Assembly: GCA_903821745.1 (NCBI GenBank)
Contig: CAIJMI010000004.1
Span: 152,404 to 216,403, forward strand
Source of the DNA: Candidatus Gottesmanbacteria bacterium
Lineage (GTDB): Bacteria; Patescibacteriota; Microgenomatia; UBA10105; UBA927
Direction: 5' to 3'
DNA length: 64,000 nt
Made by a program: the position numbers and the translations under genes. Below are positions 29,051 through 61,336 of the stretch, piece after piece. Every line of letters starts with the position of its first letter. Positions within the stretch are counted from its first letter, which is position 1. Under the pieces are notes generated by a model, which searched no databases, was not told the DNA's origin, and saw only the letters and a list, made by a program, of their open reading frames with translations.

Positions 29051-29064
29051 TTTGTTTTTCACAT

Positions 29065-31962: not shown

Positions 31963-31965
31963 TCT

Positions 31966-32538: not shown

Positions 32539-32614
32539 AGGAAGGTTGTGTAACTCAATCACTGTGCCGCAACGGTAAAGTCCGGAACTCTTCTTTACCT
32601 ATCCCGAGCAGGAG
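32537..32614 (+). promoter_or_regulatory. Conserved riboswitch-like 5' leader, copy 1 (candidate cobalamin-responsive element)
   Basis: Duplicated about 1 kb downstream. Contains CACUG, a UGCCG-CAA-CGGUA hairpin, AAGUCCGGAA, and an ACUC tract complementary to the GGAG Shine-Dalgarno. Confidence 0.35.
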
Positions 32615-32623
32615 TATTTTTTT

Positions 32624-35301: not shown

Positions 35302-35313
35302 ACCAGGTGTGAT

Positions 35314-35718: not shown

Positions 35719-38071
35719 GCATATGTCGACGGAATTGACTGATATTATCGGAAAAGCAGAAGTATTCGGAATGAATGTGCTTCTTCTTGTTTTATTTCTT
35801 GGTGCCTTTTTTGGGCTATGTTACGTTGCATTTCTTTTATGGAAATACCGAAATCGGGAAGCACGGTCGTTGTCATATGTACTGCTGCAAATAGCAGTGC
35901 CACGAGAAAATGAAATTAAAATCGATGCGGCAGAACAAATGTTTTCCAGTTTGTATGGCATATTTAATAATAAATGGTGGGCATTTGTAAAACCGCAGGA
36001 TCATATTTCATTTGAAATTGTGGCAAAACGGGAAGATATCCGTTTTTATGTGTCTGTCCCAAAAAACATAAAAGACCTCGTTGAAAAACAAATCAACGGT
36101 GCATATCCCGGAGCTGATATTAAAGAAGTAGAGGAATACTCTATTTTTTCTGAAAAAGGGAAAGTGTCATTTGCGGCGCTACGGCTTCGTTATGCTAGTC
36201 ATTATCCAATTAGAAACTATCGTGATTTACCAACAGATGCACTTTCGCTTGTGACGTCAGTGCTTGCTAAGATGAGCGAAGGGGAAGGAGCGGTTATCCA
36301 GCTTTTGATTCAGCCGACAGGTGACAAATGGAAACGAGTGGGACGGTCATACATTTCCAAAATAAAGAAAGATGAAGCAAATCCAGAAAAAGCAAATTTT
36401 AAAATTAATCAAAAATCTTTGGAAGCAATTGAAACAAAAATTCAAAAACCTGGATTTAACAGCGTCATCCGTATTGTTGTTTCATCGACAACCAAGGATC
36501 AGGCTGATCAGCATCTAAAAAATATTCTTGCAGCATTCGAACAATTTTCATCAGACAATAATTCATTCTGGGAGATAAAATTTCCAATTAAACATCTATT
36601 TCTTACTGATTTTATATACCGCTATTTTCCAGTTGTGAATTTACCACTTCTCCGACAATTTAGTGTACTAAACAGTGATGAACTGGCAAGTATTTTCCAT
36701 TTACCGAATAAAACAATAGAAACGCCGCACATCTTTTGGTTGAACGCAAAGCGCGCGCCTGCTCCAATGCTCATTCCTGAATCAGGATTATTTTTAGGCA
36801 TGTCAAAATACCGTGGTGTGGAGCGTCCGATTTTTATCGGAGATGATGACAGACGGCGTCACATGTATGTCATTGGAAAAACCGGTACAGGAAAGTCGCA
36901 ACTTCTGGAAGAAATGGTCATGCAGGATATTAATGCAGGAAAGGGGGTTGCTGTTATTGATCCCCACGGAGATTTGATTTCAGGAATTTTGAATCGTATG
37001 CCAGTTTCGAGAGCTGAAGATGTAATTGTGTTTGATCCTTCTGATACTGAGAGACCGATGGGACTGAATATGCTTGAGGCAAAAACAGAGGAACAAAAAC
37101 ATTTTGTTGTCACATCAATCGTCGGCCTTATGTATAAATTGTACGACCCAATGAAAACAGGAATTATCGGTCCTCGGTTTGAACATGCAATTAGAAATGC
37201 CATGCTTACTGTCATGGCAGAGCCTGGAAATACGTTTGTTGAAGTGGTTCGTGTATTAACAGATCCTGCATTTGTGCAAGAGTTATTGCCGAAAGTTAAT
37301 GACCCAATGATTAGACGGTATTGGACAGATCAAATTGCTCAAACTGCCGACTTTCATAAGTCAGAAGTTTTGGATTATATCGTTTCAAAATTCGGTCGGT
37401 TTGTTACAAATAAATTAATGCGGAATATCATTGGGCAATCCGTGTCTTCATTTGATTTTAGAAAAGTGATGGATGAAGGAAAAATTCTTCTGGTGAATTT
37501 GGCAAAAGGAAAACTTGGAGAAGAAAACAGTAACTTTTTGGGATTGATTCTCGTTCCCCGTATTCTTGTTGCCGCAATGAGCAGACAGGAAATGCCAGAA
37601 GAAGACCGGCGGGATTTTTATCTTTATGTCGACGAGTTTCAAAACTTTGCAACTCCAGACTTTGCGCAGATTCTTTCCGAGGCTCGGAAGTACAGACTCA
37701 ATTTAACCGTTGCCAACCAATTTATTGGTCAAATGGAAGAGGAAGTGAAGAATGCAGTATTCGGGAACGTCGGTACGCTAATTTCATTCCGTGTTGGTGT
37801 GACGGATGCAAACTATTTGCAGCATGAATATCAACCGACGTTTAACGAATCAGATCTTATCAATATTGATAAATACAATTCGTATGTAAAAACAATTGTG
37901 AAGAATGAACCAATGAAACCATTTTCCATTGATTTAACGAAAGATATGAATCAAATTGTTCAAGCAAGAAATCCTCAAATTGCAAAAGCAATCATTCAAC
38001 TGTCACGGTTAAAATATGGAAGAAGCAAAGAGTTGGTAGAGGCGGAAATTTCACAGCGCGCGAGATTGTAA
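35708..38071 (+). CDS. Membrane-anchored P-loop ATPase of the VirB4/VirD4/TraG/HerA (FtsK-HerA) superfamily
   Basis: N-terminal TM helix. Walker A IGKTGTGKSQ about 380 aa in, Walker B LYVDEFQNF, and an ARKYRLNLTVANQ arginine-finger region as in VirB4/TraC-type ATPases. Confidence 0.7.
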   Translation: MYNKHMSTELTDIIGKAEVFGMNVLLLVLFLGAFFGLCYVAFLLWKYRNREARSLSYVLLQIAVPRENEIKIDAAEQMFSSLYGIFNNKWWAFVKPQDHISFEIVAKREDIRFYVSVPKNIKDLVEKQINGAYPGADIKEVEEYSIFSEKGKVSFAALRLRYASHYPIRNYRDLPTDALSLVTSVLAKMSEGEGAVIQLLIQPTGDKWKRVGRSYISKIKKDEANPEKANFKINQKSLEAIETKIQKPGFNSVIRIVVSSTTKDQADQHLKNILAAFEQFSSDNNSFWEIKFPIKHLFLTDFIYRYFPVVNLPLLRQFSVLNSDELASIFHLPNKTIETPHIFWLNAKRAPAPMLIPESGLFLGMSKYRGVERPIFIGDDDRRRHMYVIGKTGTGKSQLLEEMVMQDINAGKGVAVIDPHGDLISGILNRMPVSRAEDVIVFDPSDTERPMGLNMLEAKTEEQKHFVVTSIVGLMYKLYDPMKTGIIGPRFEHAIRNAMLTVMAEPGNTFVEVVRVLTDPAFVQELLPKVNDPMIRRYWTDQIAQTADFHKSEVLDYIVSKFGRFVTNKLMRNIIGQSVSSFDFRKVMDEGKILLVNLAKGKLGEENSNFLGLILVPRILVAAMSRQEMPEEDRRDFYLYVDEFQNFATPDFAQILSEARKYRLNLTVANQFIGQMEEEVKNAVFGNVGTLISFRVGVTDANYLQHEYQPTFNESDLINIDKYNSYVKTIVKNEPMKPFSIDLTKDMNQIVQARNPQIAKAIIQLSRLKYGRSKELVEAEISQRARL

Positions 38072-38132
38072 AAAATACCCTCTTTACATTCTTTATAATT
38101 GCTATACACTCTTGAAGTATTGACAAAAAAGT

Positions 38133-39539
38133 ATGGACCAACAAGAAGAACCTTCCTGCACTACCGCGATTGTTAAACGTCACGAAAAAGTCGTCTACAT
38201 TTTTAATCTTTCAGAAGATGTTTGGCCTTTTATTAAGGCAATGTCTGATCCGCATGAGCGGCAATTTGAAATTGATTGGAATGCAAATCTTGCTGAACGT
38301 GATCTTCTTTCAATTGCTGAAGAAAATGAAGCAATATTTATCAGTCCTCATCCAATCAAAGATTCTTTTCTTTCATATTACCAACAGGTATTTGGTACAA
38401 AACATATTCAAATTTTGGTTCCAAAAACACACACCGGTGAAATTTGTGAAGACATTATCAATGATAATGATCTCGTTGAGGAACTAATTAAAGCAGCAAA
38501 TTCAGTTAAAAAATTAACACTCATCAGCTATTCAACGAGTCCGCAATTTCTACATCTTGTTTCAAAACTTCAAAAAAAAGGAATTACTGTGTATACCCCA
38601 GAATCTCCTGAAGTTCCAAGTGCATGGACCGTTAATTTCTATGGGAGCAAATCTGGTATCAGGCAGCTTGCACAAAAAAGCGGTGCCATAGAGCCGGATT
38701 TTAAAATAGCGGATGGTCTTATTTGTTCTTCTATCTATGATGCGGCAATGATTGCTGCACATAAGTATATAAAAGAAGGCGGTGTCGTTATTAAAACGAA
38801 TAAAGGACATTCCGGTGCAGGAGTACTTTTGTTACGTCCAGGAGATCTTCCGAATGAATATGATGCATGTGAAAAAGCAATTCATACAATGTTGAAAAAA
38901 GATAAATATTGGGAAGAATTTCCTATCGTTATCGAAGATCTGTTAAATGTAAATCCTGCAGTTGGTGGAGGATTTCCGGATGTTGAATTTAAAATTCAAA
39001 AATCAGGAAAAATTGAACTCTTATACTACTGCGCAATGCGGGTGGACAGAAGCGGGATCTATAAAGGACAGGAAATGCATGAATCAGTTCTTCCAGAACG
39101 GTTAGCCGCACGAATTGTTGATACAGGATTTTTTATTGGTGAGCAATATGCTGCTGCAGGATATCGGGGATATTTTGACGTTGATTTTGTTGCAGCAAAA
39201 AATGGAGAAATTTATGTAACAGAATCCAATGCTCGTCGAACAGGAGGAACCCACGTCTATAAAACTGCGATGAATCTTATTGGCAAAGAGTTTATGACTG
39301 ATTCCTATACACTTTCCAATAACGATTATTCCTTACCGAAAGGAAAAAAACCTTCTCTTGAGGAAGTGATACAGGTATTAACGCCAGTTCTGTTTGATAA
39401 AAAAACAAAAGAGGGTGTTGTCCTTGCGTCATCCAATTTACTTGAACAAGGGAAATTTGCATATATCATTTTTGGTAAAAATGAAAAACGCTCGCTCGAA
39501 ATAGAAGCAGAAATGGAAAAACTTCTTTTGAAGCTTTAG
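38133..39539 (+). CDS. ATP-grasp fold enzyme, unknown substrate
   Basis: KTNKGHSGAGV and ESNARRTGGTH ATP-grasp motifs. Confidence 0.55.
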   Translation: MDQQEEPSCTTAIVKRHEKVVYIFNLSEDVWPFIKAMSDPHERQFEIDWNANLAERDLLSIAEENEAIFISPHPIKDSFLSYYQQVFGTKHIQILVPKTHTGEICEDIINDNDLVEELIKAANSVKKLTLISYSTSPQFLHLVSKLQKKGITVYTPESPEVPSAWTVNFYGSKSGIRQLAQKSGAIEPDFKIADGLICSSIYDAAMIAAHKYIKEGGVVIKTNKGHSGAGVLLLRPGDLPNEYDACEKAIHTMLKKDKYWEEFPIVIEDLLNVNPAVGGGFPDVEFKIQKSGKIELLYYCAMRVDRSGIYKGQEMHESVLPERLAARIVDTGFFIGEQYAAAGYRGYFDVDFVAAKNGEIYVTESNARRTGGTHVYKTAMNLIGKEFMTDSYTLSNNDYSLPKGKKPSLEEVIQVLTPVLFDKKTKEGVVLASSNLLEQGKFAYIIFGKNEKRSLEIEAEMEKLLLKL

Positions 39540-40284: not shown

Positions 40285-40356
40285 GCGCCCGTAGCTCAGC
40301 GGTAGAGCGCATGTCTTATAAACATGAGGTACTTGGATCGTCACCAAGCGGGCGCA
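40285..40356 (+). tRNA. tRNA-Ile (anticodon UAU), 72 nt, no encoded CCA
   Basis: Manual cloverleaf: acceptor GCGCCCG/CGGGCGC, D-arm GCTC-AGCGGTA-GAGC, anticodon stem CATGT/ACATG, loop CTTATAA, T-arm CTTGG-ATCGTCA-CCAAG, discriminator A. Confidence 0.8.
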
Positions 40357-40357
40357 C

Positions 40358-43011: not shown

Positions 43012-43428
43012 CTACTCGAGATTAAGGAGTTTTGCGAGCGTTGAGGTGGAGTGGGTGGAAAGATGTGGAATAATAACAGCCTCTGCACCAAGTTGTTCTG
43101 TTTGTTTCATTTTCTTTTCAAGTATCGAATCACCCTCCGTTAATGCAATCGCATCAGGGTTAATTGTTTTTACTGCGTCAAAATATTCTGCGTCACTATT
43201 CATTGGTGGAAGCGCTATGACTTCATCAACCATGCGGAGTGCTTCAAGCATTTTTTTCCGTTGTTTTTGGGTGTGAAACGGCCGTCCTGCGCCTTTTAAT
43301 CGTTTAATGGTTTCATCAGATTCAAGCATCACAATTAATTTGTCACCATGTTTTTTTGCTGCTTCCAAAAAAGAAATATGACCAAAATGAATAAAATCAA
43401 AACATCCTCCAACAAGTATGGTTTTCAT
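43012..43428 (-). CDS. Cytidylyltransferase-like nucleotidyltransferase
   Basis: GGCFDFIHFGHISFL HxGH-type motif. Confidence 0.65.
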   Translation of the reverse strand: MKTILVGGCFDFIHFGHISFLEAAKKHGDKLIVMLESDETIKRLKGAGRPFHTQKQRKKMLEALRMVDEVIALPPMNSDAEYFDAVKTINPDAIALTEGDSILEKKMKQTEQLGAEAVIIPHLSTHSTSTLAKLLNLE

Positions 43429-44840
43429 TGTTTTGTCCCCCGTAAAAAGACTGCCTGCCAGGGTTGATAATTGGATACAAAGATTTGATCAATGGTCCGT
43501 TCACCATTTTTTGTTACCCGATATTCAAAAGATGCTTTTGCACCCCATGCATCAAAGTCTACCTGTTTGATGGTACCGACGGAAAGCGTTGGATCATCTT
43601 GATACAAAGTTGGTGGAGGTGGTGTAATACCTGAAAGTGTCTGATTAAGAATTTCAGCCTTTCTTCCGTCAGAAACACCATATAAATCAAATGTCAGAGT
43701 GAGGTTGTTTGTGTCTGTTTTTGTTTGAATGAGAATATATGCTTGCGTATCGTTTATAAATTTTAAATCATTACTTGGATCAAATACAGTTGCATCGAGG
43801 CCTGGTTTAAAACCGCCTTCTTCATAATAATGAACGCGGTACGAATGTGCATGGCGTTCAATTATTGGAAGTCCAGCATTGAGGGCGGCACGGAACAAGG
43901 TTGTTGAAACTTGACATACACCGCCTCCATCCCCAAGAACGGTTCTGCCATCCTTAATAATATATGCAGATTGATATCCTGTTGCTGCGGATATGTCACC
44001 AACAGTTTTATTAAATGAAAACGTTTCACCTGGCGCAATAAGGACACCATTTAATTTTGCGGCAGCAAGCGCAACATTGTGAATACGTCCCGGTATGGAT
44101 CCTGCAAATTCTGAGTACCCGGTACTGATTTTTTCTCTAATACCGAAGGAATTTGCTTGTTTTGTTGAAACAACAGGTGTAATTGTGTCAACGGGAATGG
44201 ATAATGTAACACGATTAGAATTTTTTTTGACTGCATCAATCAGAAGTTGTCCAAACAAATCTCGAAGTTGTTTTTCATTTACGCGTCTGCCTTCCTGCGA
44301 AGGTTTAAAAGAAATCACTTTTCCTTTCGTAAATTGAAACAGTGCATTTTCAACCGGAATATTAATGATTGCCGATACGGAAGCAATAGTATTGGTAAGC
44401 GCATCCTCATTCCATTCAAATGCAGGAGGGAGGTTGATCGGTTGGTTTCCGTAGCGCTCACGGAGATTGCTTGTAAAATGAGAAGATCGACCCACAAGTA
44501 ATGCTTGTGTTGCTGAAAGGGTGGCATTATATCCCAGGTGAAGATCTGTTCCTGATATCGTGGCAATGGTATTTTCAAATCGGAGTTCAAATTGAACATT
44601 TGAAAGGGTAGTATTTTTACGTAGCCAGTAAGTTTCTATTTCTTGCTGCGTTTTTCCGCCAAATGCTATCGAATCAATAAACACCTGTGGATATGCACGA
44701 TGTGCATATGCCTGTTCAAAATAGACAAAAAAGCTGGTTATACTGCCAAAAGCAAATATAAGTAGAGATATACATATCCAAAGAATTTTTTTATGTATGG
44801 GCTTGTTGTTTCTGAGAGCCATGATATGATTATTGTACAA
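43425..44840 (-). CDS. VanW/YoaR-family protein
   Basis: N-terminal TM; VanW domain GDGGGVCQVSTTLF. Confidence 0.75.
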   Translation of the reverse strand: MYNNHIMALRNNKPIHKKILWICISLLIFAFGSITSFFVYFEQAYAHRAYPQVFIDSIAFGGKTQQEIETYWLRKNTTLSNVQFELRFENTIATISGTDLHLGYNATLSATQALLVGRSSHFTSNLRERYGNQPINLPPAFEWNEDALTNTIASVSAIINIPVENALFQFTKGKVISFKPSQEGRRVNEKQLRDLFGQLLIDAVKKNSNRVTLSIPVDTITPVVSTKQANSFGIREKISTGYSEFAGSIPGRIHNVALAAAKLNGVLIAPGETFSFNKTVGDISAATGYQSAYIIKDGRTVLGDGGGVCQVSTTLFRAALNAGLPIIERHAHSYRVHYYEEGGFKPGLDATVFDPSNDLKFINDTQAYILIQTKTDTNNLTLTFDLYGVSDGRKAEILNQTLSGITPPPPTLYQDDPTLSVGTIKQVDFDAWGAKASFEYRVTKNGERTIDQIFVSNYQPWQAVFLRGTKQ

Positions 44841-50798: not shown

Positions 50799-50846
50799 TA
50801 ATTTTGGTTGATTGTCGCGTCTCCCTATGCTAGTATCGATGATACC

Positions 50847-51773
50847 ATGAAGCAGAAAATCTTCTTTCTCATCGGAATCCTTGTTTTTGTTGCTCTCATT
50901 ATCGGCGTTATTAAAATGGTGTTGGGCAAATCTTCGAAACAAGGGGATTTACGGGTAGAAAGTAATCCTGTAGCAAGTGTATTTTTGGACAATAAACATA
51001 TTGGAAGAACGCCAATCGGAGAAACATCATATAAACTTGATCCTGGTGAATACACGTTAAAAATCGTTCCAGATTCCGGTTCAACACAATTTGCCAGCTG
51101 GACAGGGAAAATAACGATTGGACCGAATTTGTTAACGTATGTCAAAGCGGACATGTCCGAATCAGAACTGTCAACCGCTGTTGATGTGTTGTGGTTGGAA
51201 AAAATGAGTGGGAAAAAATCGGAGGTTTCGGTAACCACTATGCCTGACAGTGCAACCGTTATGATTGATGATGAAACAAAAGGTATGACACCAATCATTA
51301 TTCCTGACATCACTCCTGGAAATCATGTGATAACGATTACCTCACAGGGGTTTCTGACTCGAACAATGAAAGTGCAATTAACCCCAGGATATCGGCTCAT
51401 TGCAGCACTCAAGCTGGCGCTAACATCAGCTAAATCGGTAACACTAACACCCGAAGCATCTTCATCAGCATCGACAGTCAAAACAGCAACACCTTCAGGA
51501 ACAATTAAACCAACCCCCAAAACAACACCACTTACGAGTCTTCAGGATCCGGTAAAACCCTATGCGCTGATTAAAGATACGCCAACGGGGTATTTGAATG
51601 TTCGGATGGGGCCAGTGAAAACAGCGACCAAAACAGCTGAGGTGAAACCAGGAGAAAAATATTCTTACGACAAAACAGAAACAGACACGGCAAGTACGGT
51701 TTGGTACGAAATTAAAAAAGATGGTGTTGTCTTAGGATGGATTTCAGGACAATACGTTGAGAACGTCGAGTAA
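50847..51773 (+). CDS. PEGA-domain membrane-anchored protein with C-terminal SH3b-like domain
   Basis: N-terminal TM; two PEGA-like repeats (GRTPIGE..Y.L..G.Y.L); T/P-rich linker; bacterial SH3-like C-terminus. Confidence 0.5.
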   Translation: MKQKIFFLIGILVFVALIIGVIKMVLGKSSKQGDLRVESNPVASVFLDNKHIGRTPIGETSYKLDPGEYTLKIVPDSGSTQFASWTGKITIGPNLLTYVKADMSESELSTAVDVLWLEKMSGKKSEVSVTTMPDSATVMIDDETKGMTPIIIPDITPGNHVITITSQGFLTRTMKVQLTPGYRLIAALKLALTSAKSVTLTPEASSSASTVKTATPSGTIKPTPKTTPLTSLQDPVKPYALIKDTPTGYLNVRMGPVKTATKTAEVKPGEKYSYDKTETDTASTVWYEIKKDGVVLGWISGQYVENVE

Positions 51774-51775: not shown

Positions 51776-52714
51776 TTATCCTCCAATGCCGTAGATGACA
51801 AGAAGGACGGAACCAACCCACAAAAGAATTGTTGTTAACAGGGGAATATCTGATGTTAATATTTTTTCCGGTGATTCACCTTTTCCTTCATAAATAAGCT
51901 GCATATAGCGCATAATTCCATACAACACAAAGGGAATGGTGATCATCATCCATTTTCGATCCGGAAGCCCTACGCCAAAATCTTCATAATTTTTAAAGAA
52001 AAATCCCAAATTAGACGGTTTCTCAAGAAAGGTGTAATAGGCATAGGTGATAAACGTGGAATTGGCAAACATAGCAGTATAGGTATCAAGTAACTTTTCT
52101 GAATAATGCGATAAACTGTCTCTCGTATCTTTTGGAACAATACCCTGATACCCCTGAATTAAGGTTAGCTCTGCTCTCCGTTTTCCCGTTGCTAAGAAGA
52201 GGGCCAGTGAAAATGCAGCAAGGGCAAGCCAGACGGAAATATGATATCCCGTTGCAGCTTCACCTGCATAAACGCGGATAAAATACGCTGCTGTGATTGC
52301 CAGAATATCGATAACGACAATATGTTTTAACACTAAAGAGTATCCATATTGCAGACAAATAAAGCCGATGGATAATAGTAAAAAGGTCGTTCCAAGAGAT
52401 GCAGCTATTATCATGCCAATGATAAATAGACCAAGGGACGTAAAAAGTGCAATTGGAACAGGGAGTTTTCCACTCGCAATTGGGCGAAACTTTTTAAATG
52501 GATGTTTTCTGTCTTTTGCTGCATCCAAAATATCATTGATAATATAGCTGGATGAAGAAAAACAGCAGAGTGCAATAAATGCCCAAAGGGATGGAACAAA
52601 AAAAGCAGGCTGGAAAAATTTACCTGTAAAAAGAATCGGCGTAAACACCGCAACATTTTTCAACCATTGTCTTGGTCTTGTGGTTTTGAAAATTGCGAAA
52701 AGAAGTTGACCCAT
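51776..52714 (-). CDS. UbiA-family prenyltransferase (decaprenyl-phosphate phosphoribosyltransferase-like)
   Basis: TTRPRQWLKN N-terminus and NDxxD-type motif IINDILDAAKDRKHP. The longer ORF extension to 52894 is probably not translated. Confidence 0.7.
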   Translation of the reverse strand: MGQLLFAIFKTTRPRQWLKNVAVFTPILFTGKFFQPAFFVPSLWAFIALCCFSSSSYIINDILDAAKDRKHPFKKFRPIASGKLPVPIALFTSLGLFIIGMIIAASLGTTFLLLSIGFICLQYGYSLVLKHIVVIDILAITAAYFIRVYAGEAATGYHISVWLALAAFSLALFLATGKRRAELTLIQGYQGIVPKDTRDSLSHYSEKLLDTYTAMFANSTFITYAYYTFLEKPSNLGFFFKNYEDFGVGLPDRKWMMITIPFVLYGIMRYMQLIYEGKGESPEKILTSDIPLLTTILLWVGSVLLVIYGIGG

Positions 52715-53751
52715 AAGAAAAAGCCTCCTATAGCAACCGCAATCAAAAATAATGCAAATATTTTTTGTCTGCTGTTGATAACGAGTGCGATCACTCCCAG
52801 TATAGCGGAGACCCCCCAGTAAAACAATGCAATTCTTCGTTTTCCCCATCCTGCATCCATAAGAACGTGATGAAGATGCTTTCTGTCTGCCCAAACGGGT
52901 GACTTCCCTTTTGCAACACGCCGAAGAAGGGTATACACCGCATCAACCGTTGGAATACCAAGAACTAAAAGTGCCGTACCCAATTTTCCATAAGATAAAA
53001 TTGCAAGAAGTCCCAGAAGAAATCCTGCAAGTGTTTTTCCACTGTAGCCTGGCATAATTTTTTGCGGATAAAAATTCCAAGGTAAAAATCCGGCATATGC
53101 ACCGGATACGATAAAGGCAAAAACAGTTATTGGGATTTGTGACGGATCATTAATACTATACCGTAAAGAAAGAATGCCAATGATGCCGGCACTAATGGAA
53201 ACAAATCCCGGCATTTGTCCTTCAACTCCTGCAGACCATCCGACAATATTAGTTGTCCACATAAGCCATAAAAATGCAGTAATTGCTGACCAGACAAGGA
53301 GCGAATGCGTACCGAAAAACTGGATGGTGATGCGAAGCGTATCAAGATGCAGAAGTCCTCCAGTAATGGGATTGGTAATATACGGTACGCCTGCACCCGC
53401 AAGAATGGCAATGCCGATTGCAAGGGAATTGGTAAGGATACGGATATATGGGCTGATATCCTTTTTATCGTCAAGAAGTCCAACGACCGTAAAAATAATA
53501 CAAGAGATGGTAATACCAATAAAGAGTTTATTTAATGGTAGAAAGATAAGAGAAACAGCTAAAATACCTATGACAATGGCAAGTCCTCCTGCGCGAGGGA
53601 TGATACCGACATGGGTATTGGCTGGATGAATCCGTTTTTTTGGATCATCCACTAATCCATATCGTTTGGCGAACCAGATCATAAATGGCGTTATTCCCAT
53701 TGTGGTTGCGGTGGCAAGAAGAAATGGGATAAAAATATTTTGTACCCACAT
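52660..53751 (-). CDS. Glycosyltransferase family 4 polyprenyl-phosphate sugar-1-phosphate transferase (WecA/MraY family)
   Basis: DD motif (LLDDKKD); about 10 TM helices. Confidence 0.75.
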   Translation of the reverse strand: MWVQNIFIPFLLATATTMGITPFMIWFAKRYGLVDDPKKRIHPANTHVGIIPRAGGLAIVIGILAVSLIFLPLNKLFIGITISCIIFTVVGLLDDKKDISPYIRILTNSLAIGIAILAGAGVPYITNPITGGLLHLDTLRITIQFFGTHSLLVWSAITAFLWLMWTTNIVGWSAGVEGQMPGFVSISAGIIGILSLRYSINDPSQIPITVFAFIVSGAYAGFLPWNFYPQKIMPGYSGKTLAGFLLGLLAILSYGKLGTALLVLGIPTVDAVYTLLRRVAKGKSPVWADRKHLHHVLMDAGWGKRRIALFYWGVSAILGVIALVINSRQKIFALFLIAVAIGGFFLWVNFFSQFSKPQDQDNG

Positions 53752-53755
53752 ATGT

Positions 53756-54148
53756 TTAAATGACCATCGTAATAATTTTAACGAGTGTGATGGTCGAAAG
53801 AATGCTTATGACAAGAGAGCTAAGTGTAAGGGTTTGAGAAAAAACGAGATATTCATTCGTTAGGATTGAGGCAATAGAGATATTAATACCGGTAATAACA
53901 AGGGATGATGCAGGAAGAAGAAAAAGCCAGAATGGAGGAGCTAATCGTTCAGCTCCCCACGGTTTGGAATACCACAAGGGTACAATGGGTGGAAGTTTTT
54001 GCCAAAAGATAATGATACCAAGAACACTTATTGTACATAACAATAACGTGAACTTTGTTGCAAGAGAAATAATTCTATTTTGTGAAAGTATTTTCCATGA
54101 GGCGATGAGTGTGCGCCATTGATTGTGTATAACGGCAAGGAATTTCAT
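53756..54148 (-). CDS. Small integral membrane protein
   Basis: 3-4 TM helices within the glycan cluster. Confidence 0.4.
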   Translation of the reverse strand: MKFLAVIHNQWRTLIASWKILSQNRIISLATKFTLLLCTISVLGIIIFWQKLPPIVPLWYSKPWGAERLAPPFWLFLLPASSLVITGINISIASILTNEYLVFSQTLTLSSLVISILSTITLVKIITMVI

Positions 54149-54156
54149 AAGAATCG

Positions 54157-55488
54157 TTATTTTTTTACTCCTTTGGTGAGTGGCAATTCATAGGTAATGG
54201 AATAGGTTCCATCTCCATGTACCATAAATGTTCGGATTGGATAGGAAGGAAGTTGATTTGCTATATGTTTTGCATCAAGTACTGCATCACCGATAAACCA
54301 AGGAAACACCGCGCCTTTTGGGTTATAAAAATAAACCCGATTTCTGTTTTTTGCATAATACATCGTTTCAAGAAAGATAATCGGATTATCTGCAAATATA
54401 ACGTCCTGTGGTTCAATGAGGGTATTAATTTCTTGCATTGGTGTACGAAGATCCATTTTACTGTGTTTGTCTGAATACCACATACTAAAACCAAACGTGT
54501 AAGAAAAAATTGCAATCGCGAACATCCATTGGACAATTTTCATTTTGAATGAAGAAATTGCGTAGCCAATCAGAAACACTTCTGCAATAGTTACCGGAAT
54601 ACAATATCGATTCACAAAGATAGGTTTAATAAAGGAAACGCCGATGACAAGAATAAGGGGAATATATACAAAACCTAAAAATAATGTCGAATGTTTTCGG
54701 TTCGATTTTGGTATAAACGCCACAAAAGACAAGATTAAAAGAATGATAGACATCCATCGGGTGGTAGTCCATAAATACCCTGGCGTCCCTTCGTACCCGG
54801 TATACATGTTTCCAAGTACGGAGAAAATGAGATGAAAATCAACAGCAAAATACCATGAATAGTTAAATTTATGTGCAACAAAAAGAAAGCGGATAATCCA
54901 CGGTAAGATCGCCAGAGTAAATAGCAAAATGGATCGAATTATGGGGTCTTTAAAGAAAGTTTTTCGTTGAAACAATGTTTTGAAATGAATAATTCCGTAG
55001 TGAAGTAAACAAACAAATGGAATCATGCCAGCATAGAGGTGTGTGTAAAATCCCAATATTGCACCGATGGCAAATAGTTTCCAGTTTTGTTTAAGATATC
55101 CATAGATAGTGAGCGTGGTAAAAAAGATATACCATCCATATGCGCGCGCCTCAAGTGCGTAATAGAGAAGCATGGGGTTAAAAAAGAACAATAATGGGAT
55201 GAGCCATTGTATCCATTTTTTAGAAAATAAGTGCTCTGCAAGTAAAATAACGAGAATTGTTGCCAGTGCAAATCCGATAAACGATAGTGACCGAACAGCT
55301 ATTTCACTTTGTCCAAATAGTTTCAGCCAAAAATGGAGGAGGATGTAATAGAGCGGTGGATCAAATGAAGAATTTTGGAGAATCCAAGCCAGTGGTCGTG
55401 ATGCAAAGAGCACAGAAAATGCTTCGTCCCGCCAAAAACTTTGTATAAAATAAAACAATGGTGAGTGCGTTAATATATACGTGAACAT
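54157..55488 (-). CDS. GT-C fold glycosyltransferase (ArnT/PMT-like, families 39/83)
   Basis: First-loop DE motif (FWRDEAFSV); about 12 TM helices. Confidence 0.6.
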   Translation of the reverse strand: MFTYILTHSPLFYFIQSFWRDEAFSVLFASRPLAWILQNSSFDPPLYYILLHFWLKLFGQSEIAVRSLSFIGFALATILVILLAEHLFSKKWIQWLIPLLFFFNPMLLYYALEARAYGWYIFFTTLTIYGYLKQNWKLFAIGAILGFYTHLYAGMIPFVCLLHYGIIHFKTLFQRKTFFKDPIIRSILLFTLAILPWIIRFLFVAHKFNYSWYFAVDFHLIFSVLGNMYTGYEGTPGYLWTTTRWMSIILLILSFVAFIPKSNRKHSTLFLGFVYIPLILVIGVSFIKPIFVNRYCIPVTIAEVFLIGYAISSFKMKIVQWMFAIAIFSYTFGFSMWYSDKHSKMDLRTPMQEINTLIEPQDVIFADNPIIFLETMYYAKNRNRVYFYNPKGAVFPWFIGDAVLDAKHIANQLPSYPIRTFMVHGDGTYSITYELPLTKGVKK

Positions 55489-55497
55489 GCAATTCTA

Positions 55498-56976
55498 TTA
55501 TACCTTTTCTGTTACACGATATTCCAATCGTTTTCCAAGCATGAGTCTTGTATGCGCATCGAGTCCTGGTAGTGCAGAAAGAAAGAACGAGATGATCGGT
55601 AGCGTAAACCATTGTAAATACAAAAATGGGAGTTTCCATGAAGCATAGTCTTTCGGTTTTGGTGGTCGAATGCGCCAATCAATAATAAAAACGATAATTA
55701 AAAAGATGGTCGAAAGGGTAAGAATGCCCGATGAAAGTTGAGCAAGATTGTGACCAAGAACGGTTCTTCCAAATACAGGATTGATCAGTGGAGGAATTGT
55801 GCTTCCTAGGGTAAGCAAAAACCAATTTGCGGGCCAAAAGACATGATGTTCTAAGATCATAAAAACCCGTCGGAATCGGTCAGAAAATGGAATTTCTGTA
55901 TGTAAAAATGCATTTCGAATAACAAACGGAACATCGGAAACACCCCACGCCCACCGTTTGGACTGCTCATATTGATTTACAATGGTTTTGACGAAACTAT
56001 GACTTTCTGCAGCATCCACAAGAATGGGAAGAAAAATGCTTTCGGTGTGGGTGAGATGGCCTTTGGCAAAATATACTTTGAAGAATAAATGGTAGTCCTC
56101 CGGGATAACGTCAACGTCCCAATACCCAACATCAATAATGGTTTTAAGTGAGAGAGAATACGTTGAAAAATTGATAAATCGTGATTGTTGGGATAAAAGA
56201 GCAAGGTTCCAAATGCTATTGATGGTGTTAAACCATTTATTTGGTATTGGAATACGCCAGATATTTGAGTAAAAAAGAATAGCGCCTTGATAAAAATGAA
56301 ACGTATTCTTGTCATCAGTTAAAAATTTATATGAAAGGTATGAAAAATACTTCGGATGAATCATGGCGTCTGCGTCACAGGAGGTTATAGTGGTAAACGC
56401 AGGGTCTACCAAGTCTTTGGTTTGTTTCACTACTTCTTTTGCCGCCCATGCCATGTTGGAAGATTTTCCCATCACTTCACCTGGGGTGAGGGGGTGGTTG
56501 GTGATAATAAATCCGCCAAATTTATGTTCATATTCCTTTTTCAGCAAAGCGCCCGTTTCATTAGCACTGGTGTCTTTGGCTTCCGTTGCAAGGACGATAA
56601 TCAGTTTTTCTTTTGGTATATCCTGAAGACACAAATTATCAAACGTTCGGCGTAAAATATGAATCGGTTCTTTATATTCAGGAATGATCACAATATGTTT
56701 GATTGCTGCAAACGTTTTAAGTGTCTTTGCTTTTTTGAGCCAGTCAACTTTGATATGCGCCTGCATGGTTAGGTATGACCGGATTGCCGAGTAGGCAAGT
56801 GTAAAGGATTTGTAAAACCAGTAAACGTCAAACGTGATAATAAGGTATGCAACGAGTGCTGGATGCCAGAACGAAAGCCATAATGGCATCGTGATTAATA
56901 CCCATGATGTTAAAGGGATTGAAAATTCCAATAACCGCTGCATTCTGTTTGGATAGAGAAGAAACAATCGGCGCAT
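55498..56976 (-). CDS. Processive family-2 glycosyltransferase (cellulose/chitin-synthase-like) with flanking TM helices
   Basis: D, DxD (CDADA) and QSKRW (QxxRW) motifs. Confidence 0.75.
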   Translation of the reverse strand: MRRLFLLYPNRMQRLLEFSIPLTSWVLITMPLWLSFWHPALVAYLIITFDVYWFYKSFTLAYSAIRSYLTMQAHIKVDWLKKAKTLKTFAAIKHIVIIPEYKEPIHILRRTFDNLCLQDIPKEKLIIVLATEAKDTSANETGALLKKEYEHKFGGFIITNHPLTPGEVMGKSSNMAWAAKEVVKQTKDLVDPAFTTITSCDADAMIHPKYFSYLSYKFLTDDKNTFHFYQGAILFYSNIWRIPIPNKWFNTINSIWNLALLSQQSRFINFSTYSLSLKTIIDVGYWDVDVIPEDYHLFFKVYFAKGHLTHTESIFLPILVDAAESHSFVKTIVNQYEQSKRWAWGVSDVPFVIRNAFLHTEIPFSDRFRRVFMILEHHVFWPANWFLLTLGSTIPPLINPVFGRTVLGHNLAQLSSGILTLSTIFLIIVFIIDWRIRPPKPKDYASWKLPFLYLQWFTLPIISFFLSALPGLDAHTRLMLGKRLEYRVTEKV

Positions 56977-57001
56977 AAAGACAAGCTAAGTATACCATTT
57001 T

Positions 57002-57697
57002 TTACCGAATATCAGGAAATCCGACTTTGTCACCTCGATGCAGGACAAAATAGATGAAAAATGCTTTGAGTCCCCGAAAAATATATTTGTATCCTTCATC
57101 GCCACGTCGGCCAGAGCTGATGACAATAAGTCGAGGTAAGTAAAGCACGCGTCCAACTTTTCGGAGTCTGTGTGCCATTTCCACATCTTCCGCAATTTTA
57201 AAATCCACCGGAAATCCTCCTGCTTCGTTAGCTTTTGCTCGTATAAATGAGATATTTTGTCCCGCTGCCATGTAAATACCAAACCAATAGAGAATCTGAT
57301 TGATAAATGGTTGGAGTACATTAATGATCAAGCGATAGAAAAATCTTCCATCTTTTACCCTAAATGAACCAAAAGCTCCCGATACTCCAGGTTTAGAAAG
57401 CGCAGTTTCAATTTGTGTAAGCCAATCTTTAGGGACAATGGTGTCAGCATCTGTATATGCAACGAAATCTCCTTTGGCAATTGCCAGTCCCTGTTGTCTT
57501 GCAAATCCGATGACGCGATGGGGAACCGTAATCACGATAGCGCCTAGTTTTTTTGAAACGTCTGCTGTTTTATCTATTGATCCTCCGTCAACAACAATAA
57601 TTTCATCCGGTTTTCTATCAAGTTCTAGTAGTGATTTAATAGTTCGTGGAAGTAAAACTTCTTCATTATATGCGGGAATGACAACAGAAATTTTCAT
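57002..57697 (-). CDS. Family-2 glycosyltransferase, polyprenyl-phosphate hexose synthase-like (DPM1-like)
   Basis: VVIPAYNEE, DGGSIDKT and YTDADT motifs. Confidence 0.8.
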   Translation of the reverse strand: MKISVVIPAYNEEVLLPRTIKSLLELDRKPDEIIVVDGGSIDKTADVSKKLGAIVITVPHRVIGFARQQGLAIAKGDFVAYTDADTIVPKDWLTQIETALSKPGVSGAFGSFRVKDGRFFYRLIINVLQPFINQILYWFGIYMAAGQNISFIRAKANEAGGFPVDFKIAEDVEMAHRLRKVGRVLYLPRLIVISSGRRGDEGYKYIFRGLKAFFIYFVLHRGDKVGFPDIR

Positions 57698-57705: not shown

Positions 57706-58470
57706 TTATATCGTAAAAAGTGTTTGTGCATTATATGTTGTTGCTTCTTCAATGTCTTTGACGTCTTTATTTTGTAACTTTGCAATTGCTTGGGCGATTA
57801 AAGGAATATATTTTGGTTCTTCACGTTCTCCACGGTGACCTTCTGGTGGTAAGTACGGGGAATCCGTTTCAAGAAGCAAACGATCAAGGGGAATTGAAGG
57901 CATTACCATTGCAAGTTGTTTGGAATAGGTTGCGTTACCGTCAAGACCAATATAAAAACCTCTGTCAGTAATATTTCGTATGTCTTCAAGTCCTCCGCTA
58001 AAACAATGAAATACCCCCCGTGGAAGTGCGGGGAGTTGATCAAGAACATTGAAAATATCGGCAAACGCGTCGCGAGAATGAATAATAACGGGTAAGTTAA
58101 ATTCAAGTGCAATATGAAGTTGAGTATCAAACAGTCCTATCTGTTCATTTTTTTTTCCGACCGCATCAAATCCTTTATACGAATGATAATCGAGGCCGCA
58201 TTCACCGATAGCGATTGTCTCATTGGTCATGATTTTTACAATATCTTTTCGTTCTAATTTATTACCCGCATTGTATGGATGAATACCGACGGAGGCATAA
58301 ATAACACCGGGATTTTGAAGAGCCAGCTCTGCAGCACTTAACGAAGTTTTTATATCATCTCCTGGGTTAATAAATTTTTTCACTCCGGCTTTTTTTGCGT
58401 TGCCAATAACCATTGCCCGATCTTCATCAAAATTTGAGAAGTTTAAATGACAGTGTGTGTCGATATACAT
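57706..58470 (-). CDS. TatD-family metal-dependent hydrolase
   Basis: N-terminal DTHCHL and conserved His/Glu/Asp residues. Confidence 0.85.
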   Translation of the reverse strand: MYIDTHCHLNFSNFDEDRAMVIGNAKKAGVKKFINPGDDIKTSLSAAELALQNPGVIYASVGIHPYNAGNKLERKDIVKIMTNETIAIGECGLDYHSYKGFDAVGKKNEQIGLFDTQLHIALEFNLPVIIHSRDAFADIFNVLDQLPALPRGVFHCFSGGLEDIRNITDRGFYIGLDGNATYSKQLAMVMPSIPLDRLLLETDSPYLPPEGHRGEREEPKYIPLIAQAIAKLQNKDVKDIEEATTYNAQTLFTI

Positions 58471-58481: not shown

Positions 58482-59909
58482 TTATGGTAATCGCGGAAAT
58501 AACGGTGGTAGTGATGCAATGGTTGGCCCTGCAAATTGCGTTAATATTCGTTCTGCAGTTTCTGGAAGAAACGGTTGAAGAAGTATTGCAATTGTTTGAA
58601 TTTGTTGTACTGCATCGATAAGAATGGGAGTCCGATCAGGTTCAGACAATCTCCATGGTTCTTTGTCATTGATCAATTTATCGCAGATCTTTATTTTTTC
58701 CCACACAAATCCCAGCGCATCGTTGAGTTGAAATTCGTCAATCATCTTTTTGTATTCGTCTTTGAATACATCTTTAAATGTTGTTGTATTTTTCCCGTAC
58801 GTTACGGTTCCAGAAAGTTTTGCAACACGTGATGTAAGATTTCCAAGCCCGTTTGCTAAATCTGCGTTATACAGCTCTTTAAATCGCCGTTCAGAAAAAT
58901 CTCCATCCGCAAACGTTGGAAGTTCCTTTAAGAAATAATAGCGTAAACTTTCTGCACCGTATTTTGAAATGAGTGCAGTTGGGTCAACAATGTTACCAAC
59001 GGTTTTACTCATCTTTTGTCCATCAACGGTAAAGTATCCATGGACAAGAATAGTTTTTGGAAGTGAAAGTCCTGCAGAGAGTAAAAACGCCGGCCAGTAG
59101 ATAGCATGAAACCGCGCAATCCCTTTTCCAATGACGTGGACATCTGCCGGCCACCATTTTTTGTATGACGTTTCGTCCCATCCAAATCCAATTCCTGACT
59201 GATAAATATTTAACGCATCAAACCACACATACATCCGTTGTGTGTCATCTCCAGGAATAGGAACACCCCAGTTTTTTGCTCGTTCGTTACTTCTTGAGAT
59301 GCTGATATCTTGAAGTGGTTGTTTTAAGAAAGAAAGCATTTCATTCTTTTTTGTTTCCGGAACGATCTTTATCGTATCTGAAGATATGAGATCGATGAGT
59401 TGTTGTTGATAGGAAGAAAGTTTGAAGAAATAATTTTCTTCTTTTACGAGTTCCAATTTTTTTCCCGGATGTTCAAAACATTCTCCGTTCTCATTTAACT
59501 CATCTTTGGTGTAATACTGTTCACATCCGACACAATACAATCCTTCATAAGATTTTTTATAGATATCATGTTCACATAACTTCCAAAGTTTTTGACTTGC
59601 ACTGTAGTGATGTTCCTGATCGCTTCCTTTTTGGAATATGTCAAATTGAACATGAAGCTGTTGAGCTAATTGTTTAAATAACTCTGAATTTTTATCAATA
59701 AATTCTTGAAGTGGTATACCTGCCTTTTCCGCCGCCTGCACGTTTTTGAGCGCATTTTCATCACCACCTGATAAAAGACAGGTTTCATCTCCAAGGAGTC
59801 GGTGAATGCGGGCAACGGTATCAGCCTGTACAAATTCCAATGCGTGGCCCACATGCGGTGTAGCATTGACGTAGGGAATTGCTGTAGTGATATAGAATTT
59901 GTTTGCCAT
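58482..59909 (-). CDS. metG: Methionyl-tRNA synthetase (short form, no C-terminal appended domain)
   Basis: HIGH (PHVGHALE), KMSKT and a CVGCEQYY zinc knuckle. Confidence 0.88.
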   Translation of the reverse strand: MANKFYITTAIPYVNATPHVGHALEFVQADTVARIHRLLGDETCLLSGGDENALKNVQAAEKAGIPLQEFIDKNSELFKQLAQQLHVQFDIFQKGSDQEHHYSASQKLWKLCEHDIYKKSYEGLYCVGCEQYYTKDELNENGECFEHPGKKLELVKEENYFFKLSSYQQQLIDLISSDTIKIVPETKKNEMLSFLKQPLQDISISRSNERAKNWGVPIPGDDTQRMYVWFDALNIYQSGIGFGWDETSYKKWWPADVHVIGKGIARFHAIYWPAFLLSAGLSLPKTILVHGYFTVDGQKMSKTVGNIVDPTALISKYGAESLRYYFLKELPTFADGDFSERRFKELYNADLANGLGNLTSRVAKLSGTVTYGKNTTTFKDVFKDEYKKMIDEFQLNDALGFVWEKIKICDKLINDKEPWRLSEPDRTPILIDAVQQIQTIAILLQPFLPETAERILTQFAGPTIASLPPLFPRLP

Positions 59910-59931: not shown

Positions 59932-60273
59932 TCATGTTTTTGGTGAAGAGGTAGAGTGGGAGAAAAGGCGAAGTATAGAGAGACAACAGATAAAAAGAAG
60001 AATTCCATAGATTGGGTGACGAAGATTAAAGGAGCGAAGAAGAAAATACATCACGATGCTGCCAGAAACAATAAGGGACTGTTTTAAATCCGCAAAAATA
60101 TAAAGACAGAGAGTAATGCTAAGGCCAAACAAAAAAGTATAAAACAAAATAAAACGAACAAAGGTATCAGGAGGAAAGGAAACGATAAACCAGGAAAGAA
60201 TGGAAAGGAAGACAACGGCAAGAAGTAAAAAACCGATATTTCGTTTCTTCGTAAAAAACTCACGCATACTCAT
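59932..60273 (-). CDS. Small membrane protein
   Basis: Three TM helices; start trimmed to avoid a divergent overlap with rmuC. Confidence 0.4.
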   Translation of the reverse strand: MSMREFFTKKRNIGFLLLAVVFLSILSWFIVSFPPDTFVRFILFYTFLFGLSITLCLYIFADLKQSLIVSGSIVMYFLLRSFNLRHPIYGILLFICCLSILRLFSHSTSSPKT

Positions 60274-60316
60274 ATTGTAACGTGAACGGGGCAATGTTAG
60301 AATAGCCCTTACGAAT

Positions 60317-61336
60317 ATGGATACACTGCCAATCCTCATCATTGTCCTCATTTTAGGAATTATTTTTATTGTCTATATTTTAAAAACCGAACTATCAAAG
60401 CTTCAAAAGCCGACTGAAAACGCAGCACTAACGCAATGGCTGCAATCTATGCAGGCAACGATTGAGCACACAAATAAAACACTTAATGAAGCAATGCGCG
60501 GTCAAACAGGGGACGTATCACGACTGTTACAGGCAAACTCGAGAGAACTGAATGAACGGTTGGATGCAGCAACACATGTCATTGGCGATTTGAAACGGAA
60601 TTTAGGGGAGATGTCAGAAGTTGGAAAAGGTATCAGGAGTCTCCAAGAATTTTTGCAGTCACCGAAACTTCGGGGAAATATTGGTGAGCAAGTATTATCA
60701 GATATGATCGGTCAGACATTTCCAAAAAACGCCTTTCATTTACAATACAGCTTTCGTTCAGGACAAAAAGTTGATGCCGTGTTAAAAACGGATGCAGGAC
60801 TTCTCTGTATTGATTCAAAATTTCCGATGGAAAATTTTGCCCTTATGCATAATGGGGAAACCGAAAAAAATCGCGCTGACGCAAAAAAGGATTTTATCAG
60901 TGATGTGAAAAAACATATCACCGATATTGCGAAAAAATATATTTTGCCAGAAGAAGGGACCATGGATTTTGCGCTCATGTATATTCCGTCGGAATCTGTC
61001 TATTACGATATTGTGAATAATGAAGCGCTTATGGAAATAGCACGAAATGCTCGTGTATATTGTGTCTCCCCAAATACGCTCTATGCACATTTACAGGTAC
61101 TCCTTCTTTCCTTTCAAGGAAAAGAAATGGAAAACAGGACGAAAGATATATTTCGGCTTCTCCGAGCAGTGCAGAAAGACTATGAAAAAATTGACGAACA
61201 TTTAGGAACGCTTGGCAAACACGTGACAAATGCGTACAACAGTATGAACAGTGTTTCTTCTGGATTTGCAAGCCTCGGACAAAAGCTTTCCAGGTCAAAA
61301 GAAATAGACGCGCCTGAAGAAAAGAAGCTCGCGTGA
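60317..61336 (+). CDS. rmuC: DNA recombination protein RmuC
   Basis: N-terminal TM, coiled coil and a C-terminal RmuC nuclease-like domain. Confidence 0.8.
   Translation: MDTLPILIIVLILGIIFIVYILKTELSKLQKPTENAALTQWLQSMQATIEHTNKTLNEAMRGQTGDVSRLLQANSRELNERLDAATHVIGDLKRNLGEMSEVGKGIRSLQEFLQSPKLRGNIGEQVLSDMIGQTFPKNAFHLQYSFRSGQKVDAVLKTDAGLLCIDSKFPMENFALMHNGETEKNRADAKKDFISDVKKHITDIAKKYILPEEGTMDFALMYIPSESVYYDIVNNEALMEIARNARVYCVSPNTLYAHLQVLLLSFQGKEMENRTKDIFRLLRAVQKDYEKIDEHLGTLGKHVTNAYNSMNSVSSGFASLGQKLSRSKEIDAPEEKKLA

Follow-up and report, generated by a model that had tools for sequence, protein, structure and literature searches.

Here, we describe a compact glycan gene cluster from the candidate phyla radiation (CPR), located in a stretch of 64,000 nucleotides (referred to as the window) from the Candidatus Gottesmanbacteria contig CAIJMI010000004.1. 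The cluster is a strongly conserved, class-wide core of five genes together with an optional gene for a 231-aa glycosyltransferase. The core comprises a large synthase-like glycosyltransferase of family GT2 (GT2L), a GT-C fold glycosyltransferase, a small membrane protein, a WecA/TagO-like transferase (GT4) and a homologue of polyprenyl-phosphate 5-phosphoribosyltransferases (DPPR). We give a probability of roughly 45% to the reading, built on family membership, that the core and the optional enzyme produce a polyprenyl-phosphate-dependent envelope glycopolymer, in which the polymer made by the synthase would receive a pentofuranose outside the membrane. The enzyme types are all known, and what is new is that a DPPR/GT-C pentofuranose module is joined with a synthase-type GT2 and a polyprenyl-phosphate N-acetylhexosamine-1-phosphate transferase (PNPT) in CPR bacteria. 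No description of this system in CPR was found in the literature.

CPR bacteria, or Patescibacteria, are ultra-small and live attached to other cells, and their envelope is almost uncharacterised experimentally. The enzyme types of the cluster have established assays, which makes a pentofuranose-decorated glycopolymer on these cells a testable prediction. Further, the cluster extends the three-component pentofuranose concept published in 2024 to an uncultured lineage and a minimal gene set, and it provides new candidates for study, namely the small membrane protein of no described family and a family of GT-Cs that is linked to DPPR and common to CPR and haloarchaea. No existing view is overturned by these data.

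Six co-directional minus-strand open reading frames (ORFs) fill positions 51776-57697, exactly where a preliminary description of the sequence had placed a polyprenyl-phosphate-based glycan cluster, and the enzyme identities support that designation. The intergenic gaps measure 4-25 nt, and one pair of genes overlaps by 55 nt. The features are as follows:

57002-57697, minus strand: accessory soluble GT2 (GT-A), 231 aa, assigned by PF00535
55498-56976, minus strand: GT2L, membrane-embedded cellulose/hyaluronan-synthase-like GT2, 492 aa, assigned by PF13632, motifs and Foldseek
54157-55488, minus strand: GT-C fold glycosyltransferase, 443 aa, assigned by predicted structure and an invariant W19-R-D21-E22 motif
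53756-54148, minus strand: small membrane protein with three hydrophobic segments, 130 aa, recognised by hydropathy and conservation
52660-53751, minus strand: GT4, WecA/TagO-like PNPT, 363 aa, assigned by PF00953 (Glycos_transf_4)
51776-52714, minus strand: DPPR (DPPR/PPPRS type, UbiA superfamily), 312 aa, assigned by NF008978 and Rv3806c
52660-52714, minus strand: 55-nt overlap of the GT4 3' end and the DPPR 5' end, seen in the sequence and in independent gene calls

Each of the encoded proteins has hundreds to thousands of homologues, and the six ORFs are thus real genes and not chance ORFs. Their closest named relatives belong to Candidatus Gottesmanbacteria and to the Microgenomates group (Patescibacteria/CPR), and the G+C content is about 39%.

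Enzymes encoded by the cluster

The UbiA-superfamily member is by family a DPPR homologue, as had been proposed from the sequence, and its catalysis is predicted from homology. It scores 209.2 bits against the NCBIfam equivalog model for decaprenyl-phosphate phosphoribosyltransferases (NF008978), barely above the cut-off of 207, and falls under the cut-offs of two sister DPPR models, while the other prenyltransferase families of NCBIfam reach at most 42 bits. The protein matches Rv3806c of Mycobacterium tuberculosis (PDB 8j8j) end to end (E 1.7e-30, residues 4-303 against 13-295). The residues of Rv3806c that contact the pyrophosphate, ribose and 5-phosphate of phosphoribosyl pyrophosphate (PRPP) have been defined in its structure paper (PMC10994848), and all 11 of these substrate contacts are kept: R13, K19, Y57, N60, D64, K74, R77, Q122, Y125, K130 and Y144 of the window protein correspond to R22, K28, Y70, N73, D77, K87, R90, Q135, Y138, K143 and Y157 of Rv3806c. 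Among 30 CPR homologues, ten of the 11 contacts are invariant and Q122 is nearly so. Three of them (K19, Y57 and K74, contacting the 5-phosphate and pyrophosphate) set DPPRs apart from UbiA, MenA and CyoE of Escherichia coli, and a neighbour-joining tree of 14 sequences, with these three enzymes as outgroups, groups the window protein with the DPPRs in a clade that is monophyletic in all 100 bootstraps. A MenA-, UbiA- or CyoE-type (heme O synthase) identity is ruled out by the NCBIfam scores and the tree, and the DPPR label hence withstands the phylogenetic comparison with quinone and heme prenyltransferases that had been suggested as its check. The DPPR start codon is the ATG at 52714, which AGGAGG precedes by 10 nt; a longer ORF starting with TTG and reaching up to 52894 was rejected in favour of this start on the basis of the AGGAGG and of independent gene calls. 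The DPPR name is already given to CPR proteins in the NCBI annotation.

Enzymes of this type had been considered unusual outside Actinobacteria in the preliminary description, which does not hold: tblastn against plasmids and chromids returned 96 records, among them Rhizobium, Lactococcus, Bacteroidota, cyanobacteria, Legionella and haloarchaea. In the annotated contexts DPPR is again paired with a GT-C enzyme:

Lactococcus: GT-C, DPPR, HAD phosphatase, GtrA
Chondrinema: DPPR, DprE1, DprE2, GT39
Tsukamurella: GlfT2, PAP2, DPPR, AftA, DprE1
Legionella: DPPR and GT39 only
Haloarchaea: GT39, DPPR, PHP, LPG_synthase_TM, GT-C, epimerase

The 443-aa protein gave no match in Pfam and PDB sequence searches. 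Its AlphaFold model, built from 43 homologues, is confident (pLDDT 86.7, pTM 0.88) and has ArnT as its top Foldseek match, in line with the GT-C identity that it had been given. As modelled, the protein is a GT-C fold glycosyltransferase with a small alpha/beta domain at its C-terminal end, and the fold does not bring it closer to arabinofuranosyltransferases in particular. Near the N terminus, residues 19-22 (W-R-D-E) are invariant among its homologues, which fits the acidic catalytic motif that GT-C enzymes carry after their first helix (PMC11127046). No sequence similarity was detected to the DPPR-adjacent GT-Cs of Lactococcus, Chondrinema and Legionella or to AftA of Tsukamurella, and hhalign likewise found the profile unrelated to the Legionella GT39. 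The Gottesmanbacteria profile does match the DPPR-adjacent GT39 proteins of two haloarchaea (E 2e-32 and 8e-35).

GT2L has two N-terminal and several C-terminal helices around a GT-A domain, and it keeps the motifs D201xD203, E293-D294, Q338xxR341W342-A-x-G (QxxRW reading Q338-S-K-R341-W342) and, at the extreme C terminus, Y486-R-V-T-E-K491. These motifs are conserved in 123 full-length family members with identities as low as 28%. The last one corresponds to [F/Y]xVTxK, which marks the gating loop of cellulose synthases and provides residues in contact with UDP (PMC10592267, which also gives the roles of the GT2 motifs). The earlier assignment as a processive-type GT2 stands in that DxD, ED and QxxRW are invariant and the fold is synthase-like, with processivity being predicted, and QxxRW was present on alignment across the 123 members. 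Foldseek matches of the model were the membrane GT2 PcManGT (best), CvHAS, XlHAS1 and BcsA; the hyaluronan synthase and BcsA matches have a probability of 1.0 but a TM-score of only 0.35-0.46, and a phmmer search against PDB, in which the identity to solved synthases was below detection, gave only a marginal N-terminal match. The family is fairly small (1911 clusters at 50% identity) and uncharacterised. In a Chloroflexota metagenome-assembled genome (MAG; L095:2209-5047), a 42%-identical homologue lies directly downstream of a gene of the chitinase family GH18, an adjacency from which the product of the GT2L family may contain N-acetylglucosamine.

GT4 is, judged by its family matches, a WecA/TagO-type PNPT with an atypical central motif. 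In addition to PF00953 (73 bits), it matches the WecA model TIGR02380 over its full length with an E-value of 4e-25, as compared with 1e-8 for MraY, which rules out a housekeeping MraY identity, and it is 29% identical to E. coli WecA. The Mg-binding DD motif (D94-D95) and the HxHH loop typical of WecA (H292-L-H-H295) are kept, as expected of the WecA-like initiating transferase that had been recognised here. The canonical central motif NxxNxxDGxDG instead reads NIVGWSAGVEG (starting at N168; residues 168-182), the position of the first Asp being occupied by Ala here and by Lys or Ser in other CPR homologues, and that of the second by Glu here and by Asp in most orthologues.

The two remaining proteins are less well classified. 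The small membrane protein, already noticed in the preliminary description, has 130 residues with three hydrophobic segments and belongs to no described family: searches of Pfam (E up to 10), NCBIfam and PDB profiles gave no usable match, and BLAST comparison with Lactococcus GtrA and Marivivens EamA gave nothing. It has a conserved loop, L52-P-P-x-V-P-L-W-Y-S-x-P-W-G65, which is predicted to be extracytoplasmic. The 231-aa GT2 (PF00535, 100.6 bits) matches only GT2-family models in Pfam, none of them membrane-associated, and reaches 101 bits with its best NCBIfam model, TIGR04283, against a cut-off of 182. Its similarity to PpgS (26 bits over residues 4-74) and to the dolichyl-phosphate mannose synthase structure 5mlz (E 7e-5, behind generic GT2s) is weak and N-terminal, and since the best model is also under its cut-off, the DPM1-like label once attached to this protein is not retained. 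By these matches it is a generic accessory GT-A enzyme, and its occurrence in only 29 of 72 related loci shows it to be dispensable.

Conservation and gene order in related genomes

The cluster was compared by tblastn among 84 loci, of which 80 came from one genome per species and four from contig look-ups. The search for loci used very specific peptides and gave Gottesmanbacteria-like loci only, and the wider distribution was assembled from ten loci examined in contig look-ups. A large number of MAG records with the cluster (L007-L009 and others) are titled 'uncultured Gammaproteobacteria bacterium', and these titles look mislabelled, since the records match Gottesmanbacteria in both gene content and synteny.

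The core order GT2L, GT-C, small membrane protein, GT4 and DPPR is complete in 72/72 loci having enough sequence to judge gene order, and the GT-C gene is two genes away from DPPR in every one of them, while the 231-aa GT2 is present in 29. The small membrane protein was found in 79 related loci. Median identities to the window proteins are 70% for DPPR, 68% for GT2L, 65% for the upstream methionyl-tRNA synthetase (MetRS), 63% for GT4, 56% for the neighbouring TatD, 47% for the GT-C and 44% for the small membrane protein; GT2L, DPPR and GT4 are thus about as conserved as MetRS. The 55-nt overlap of GT4 and DPPR is kept in 74/78 loci, and the GT-C and small membrane protein genes overlap by 4 nt in 36/75.

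In three more distant Patescibacteria contigs (L103-L105; GT2L 41-45% identical), the five-gene order is retained and the flanks have changed, and the GT-C slot (L103:9679-11208, L104:7640-9073 and L105:9519-11033) holds a PMT_2-type protein. Orthology of this slot protein with the window GT-C was expected but is not borne out by hhalign, which detected no profile similarity for the L103 protein, and the slot appears, from these profiles, to have been refilled by a non-orthologous GT-C in other Patescibacteria. A more distant contig (L101; GT2L 28% identical) has only TatD, GT2L and a GT-C that is homologous to the window protein (E 2e-36), with the small membrane protein, GT4 and DPPR all absent from the adjacent positions. 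The small membrane protein is hence kept or lost together with GT4 and DPPR and travels with those two and not with a particular GT-C.

Proposed pathway and competing explanations

In the systems established biochemically by Kelly et al. 2024, a polyprenyl-phosphate phosphoribosyltransferase (PPPRS) uses PRPP to make undecaprenyl-phosphate-ribofuranose, which is exported by a flippase before a GT-C transfers the sugar to a finished glycan, and epimerases accompany only those systems that use xylo- or arabinofuranose; such combinations of a DPPR-type synthase, a flippase and a GT-C are widespread (PMC11127046). By the same three-component logic, and with every step inferred from family membership, the DPPR homologue of the window would move ribofuranose-5-phosphate from PRPP to polyprenyl phosphate at the cytoplasmic face, the 5-phosphate would be taken off by a phosphatase, and the lipid-linked ribofuranose would cross the membrane, where the GT-C would pass the pentofuranose to an extracytoplasmic acceptor. 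A third component is missing from this scheme, and the sole candidate for it is the small three-helix protein, either as a flippase or as an accessory subunit. The most likely acceptor would be the polymer of the adjacent GT2L, a putative inverting, UDP-sugar-dependent beta-glycan synthase that probably exports its own product. GT4 would make polyprenyl-diphosphate-linked N-acetylhexosamine, serving either as a primer of the polymer, as in synthase-dependent O-antigens, or as a linkage unit, and the 231-aa GT2 would add a further sugar in those genomes that carry its gene. As the GT-C family stands beside DPPR in haloarchaea without GT2L, and follows GT2L in L101 without an adjacent DPPR, two independent linkages, we regard it as the hub of the system, which most plausibly takes the DPPR-derived lipid-linked pentofuranose and places it on the GT2L product. 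The window also encodes UppP/BacA (undecaprenyl-diphosphate phosphatase) and two tandem class A penicillin-binding proteins (17031-23928, minus strand), and a polyprenyl carrier cycle and peptidoglycan are accordingly present.

The closest described counterpart is the three-component system of Citrobacter youngae O1, consisting of ORF15 (PPPRS fused to a PRP phosphatase domain), ORF14 (MATE flippase) and ORF12 (GT-C of family GT136) (PMC11127046). Both have a UbiA-type PPPRS and a GT-C, both lack an epimerase, which predicts ribofuranose, and both are tied to a WecA-initiated glycan. In contrast to the Citrobacter system, the window cluster has no PRP/HAD phosphatase domain or gene and no MATE or GtrA flippase, the unclassified three-helix protein standing in that place. 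It further differs from three-component systems in being chromosomal, core and class-wide and not a serotype-variable add-on, and in being coupled to a synthase-type GT2. Three-component hexose glycosylation systems of the GtrA/GtrB/GtrV and CsbB/GtcA/YfhO kind follow the same general logic, in which a monosaccharide is donated from a lipid carrier by a GT-C on the outer side of the membrane and a small membrane protein takes part, but the donor synthase of the window is of the UbiA type, using PRPP, and not a GtrB-type GT2, and its small protein does not resemble GtrA. For the polymer, GT2L resembles BcsA and class I hyaluronan synthases in its GT-A domain between membrane helices and in its DxD, ED, QxxRW-A-x-G and [F/Y]xVTxK motifs, while it has neither a PilZ domain nor a BcsB-like partner and differs in carrying the last of these motifs at its extreme C terminus. 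The presence of a WecA-like gene alongside a second, small GT2 also recalls the WecA/WbbE/WbbF system, in which the WbbF synthase of Salmonella O:54 extends a WecA-made primer (PMC2841628). Haloarchaeal megaplasmid cassettes (Haloterrigena and Natronococcus, known from annotation only) carry the closest DPPR of the comparators fetched (33% identity, E 9e-52), and their GT39 proteins (L087:1682-3271 and L093:5954-7498) are the only DPPR-linked GT-Cs homologous to that of the window, with profile E-values of about 1e-32 to 1e-35. These cassettes also contain a PHP phosphoesterase, a flippase-like LPG_synthase_TM protein and an epimerase, and lack GT4, the synthase GT2 and the small protein. The similarities hint that the DPPR/GT-C pair is common to, or has been exchanged between, CPR bacteria and haloarchaea.

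Several observations weigh against the proposed pathway. Searches of the window and of the flanks of the 84 loci with the Lactococcus HAD, the Tsukamurella and Marivivens PAP2 and the haloarchaeal PHP proteins gave no phosphoribose phosphatase of the HAD, PAP2 or PHP kind, and a Pfam survey of the larger predicted proteins of the window, with the hydrolase domains of P-type ATPases excluded, gave none either. Flippases of the GtrA, MATE or EamA type and homologues of LCP ligases were likewise not found in these sequences. In GT4, the first Asp of the canonical central motif is replaced. The AlphaFold2 model of GT2L, for which 34 close relatives were used, reaches only a moderate pLDDT of 67, which falls below 50 in the poorly modelled membrane region at the C terminus, and the translocation channel is only putative. 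Homologues of GT2L stand alone in the Chloroflexota MAG, in a Pseudoclavibacter MAG and in a further non-CPR MAG, and the synthase thus does not need the other genes of the cluster. Promoter and terminator scans gave site numbers no better than those in shuffled sequence, so that these scans do not fix the boundaries of the transcription unit. The missing dedicated phosphatase is not fatal to the pathway, considering that a catalytic mutant of the phosphatase domain in C. youngae still gave some ribofuranose addition (PMC11127046) and that Legionella has a bare DPPR-GT39 pair; a phosphoribose phosphatase could be encoded elsewhere.

Finally in this regard, the upstream genes for MetRS, TatD and RmuC show synteny just as strong as that of the glycan genes, which means that the gene order partly reflects general collinearity and is by itself weak evidence for a common function. 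Together with the stand-alone GT2L homologues, the pairing of GT2L and GT-C in L101 without the other three genes and the coming and going of the 231-aa GT2 between loci, this would suit a composite neighbourhood, in which two or three independent envelope functions are collinear by chance in these compact genomes: GT2L as a stand-alone exopolysaccharide synthase, the WecA/TagO-like enzyme as initiator of another polymer, and DPPR with the GT-C as a modification pair. We consider such an arrangement unlikely, as the reading frames of GT4 and DPPR overlap, as do those of the GT-C and the small protein, and the five-gene order outlasts both the change of flanks and the replacement of the GT-C in L103-L105. 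Moreover, in five loci an opposite-strand gene parts TatD from the glycan genes and never splits the latter. The overlaps, the unsplit glycan genes and the order retained in the distant contigs are stronger evidence of a common function than gene order as such. It is equally doubtful that the GT-C places a DPPR-derived pentofuranose on Ser/Thr-rich surface proteins, such as pilins or the PEGA/SH3 protein encoded next to DPPR, and that the GT2L polymer is separate. Protein O-glycosylation of this kind has precedents in TfpW, which puts arabinofuranose on Pseudomonas pilin, and in protein mannosyltransferases, which put mannose on proteins. Against it stand the nearly equal scores of ArnT, ALG12 and AftA, whose acceptors are lipids or glycans, the direct pairing of the GT-C with GT2L where DPPR is not adjacent (L101), and the adjacency of the PEGA gene, which is explicable by general synteny.

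A mycobacterial-type donor, as raised in the preliminary description, would have DPPR feed decaprenyl-phospho-arabinose by way of DprE1 and DprE2 encoded elsewhere, and the GT-C would be an arabinofuranosyltransferase. The mycobacterial decaprenyl-phospho-arabinose/arabinogalactan pathway (WecA, GlfT1/2, Rv3806c, Rv3807c, DprE1/E2 and Aft/Emb) does draw on the same four enzyme superfamilies as the window. However, neither the 64-kb window nor the sequence up to 10 kb from the 84 related loci gave a match to DprE1, and for DprE2 the window and these loci of about 20 kb (85 sequences) gave only two weak matches to short-chain dehydrogenases/reductases, whereas DprE genes adjoin DPPR in Chondrinema and Tsukamurella. 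PAP2 is likewise not found nearby, the GT2 is of the membrane synthase type and not GlfT-like, and the GT-C is small, has no carbohydrate-binding modules and is neither specifically Aft/Emb-like nor similar to Tsukamurella AftA. The arabinan-type donor is therefore very unlikely, and ribofuranose is more likely than arabinofuranose as the transferred sugar. We also attach a very low probability to GT2L being the maker of a polyprenyl-phosphate- or lipid-linked monosaccharide donor for the GT-C in the manner of GtrB, ArnC or DPM, with DPPR providing a second donor or serving another purpose. GT2L and the GT-C are the most widely retained pairing, as seen in L101, and the best Foldseek match of GT2L, PcManGT, is in PDB a mannosyltransferase; PcManGT has a minimal synthase-like fold and is not known to be processive. 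On the other hand, QxxRW-A-x-G and [Y/F]xVTxK form a cellulose-synthase-type signature, the two N-terminal and several C-terminal helices are unlike those of GtrB or DPM1, and the GH18 gene beside the Chloroflexota homologue fits a polymer product.

A variant of the proposed pathway, to which we assign a similarly small chance, is that the 5-phosphate is retained. The synthase-made glycan would in that case receive ribofuranose-5-phosphate, or else the atypical PNPT would extend this sugar through its phosphate, giving an anionic wall polymer that takes the part of teichoic acid in Microgenomates from a minimal set of five genes under selection of MetRS strength. This variant is compatible with the finding that DPPR has no phosphatase, epimerase or recognisable flippase beside it and with the conserved 55-nt overlap with the PNPT gene.

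Neighbouring genes and other features of the window

Upstream of the cluster, the same strand continues without a break (gaps of 8-25 nt) through TatD, MetRS and another small membrane protein, and downstream a convergent gene follows DPPR:

57706-58470, minus strand: TatD
58482-59909, minus strand: MetRS
50808-51773, plus strand: PEGA/SH3 protein, convergent neighbour of DPPR, assigned by Pfam PEGA and SH3_3

The PEGA/SH3 protein is membrane-anchored with two PEGA domains, a Ser/Thr/Pro-rich linker and a C-terminal SH3 domain, and its gene is separated from that of DPPR by 2 nt. A homologue lies downstream of DPPR in 82/84 related loci, on the opposite strand wherever the strand is listed. 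We treat it as context and as a possible protein acceptor outside the core system. For the small membrane protein upstream of MetRS (59932-60351, minus strand), the longest ORF overlaps the divergent RmuC gene (60317-61336, plus strand) by 35 nt, and the true start is for this reason probably an internal Met near 60270; the protein is weakly conserved (24-66% identity) and found in the same position in many related loci.

Another pair of genes that may be related to the envelope lies at 43012-44840 on the minus strand, where a 138-aa sugar-phosphate nucleotidyltransferase resembling RfaE domain II and TagD (under the family cut-offs) is encoded directly downstream of a VanW/PG_binding_4 protein. 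A patatin-like phospholipase is encoded at 15721-16515. The plus-strand block at 29029-33582, comprising NrdR, a ribonucleotide reductase large subunit with a TSCPD domain, a cobalamin adenosyltransferase, DUF4430 and DUF6580, looks like a B12-dependent ribonucleotide reductase with genes for cofactor handling or uptake. It is followed by two ORFs without a family match (33673-35718) and, at 35708-39539 on the plus strand, by a VirD4/TraG-like coupling ATPase (787 aa) and an ATP-grasp-type ligase-like protein. Most bacteria decode AUA by a lysidine-modified CAU tRNA, and the sole tRNA in the 64 kb is a tRNA-Ile with anticodon TAT (40285-40357, plus strand).

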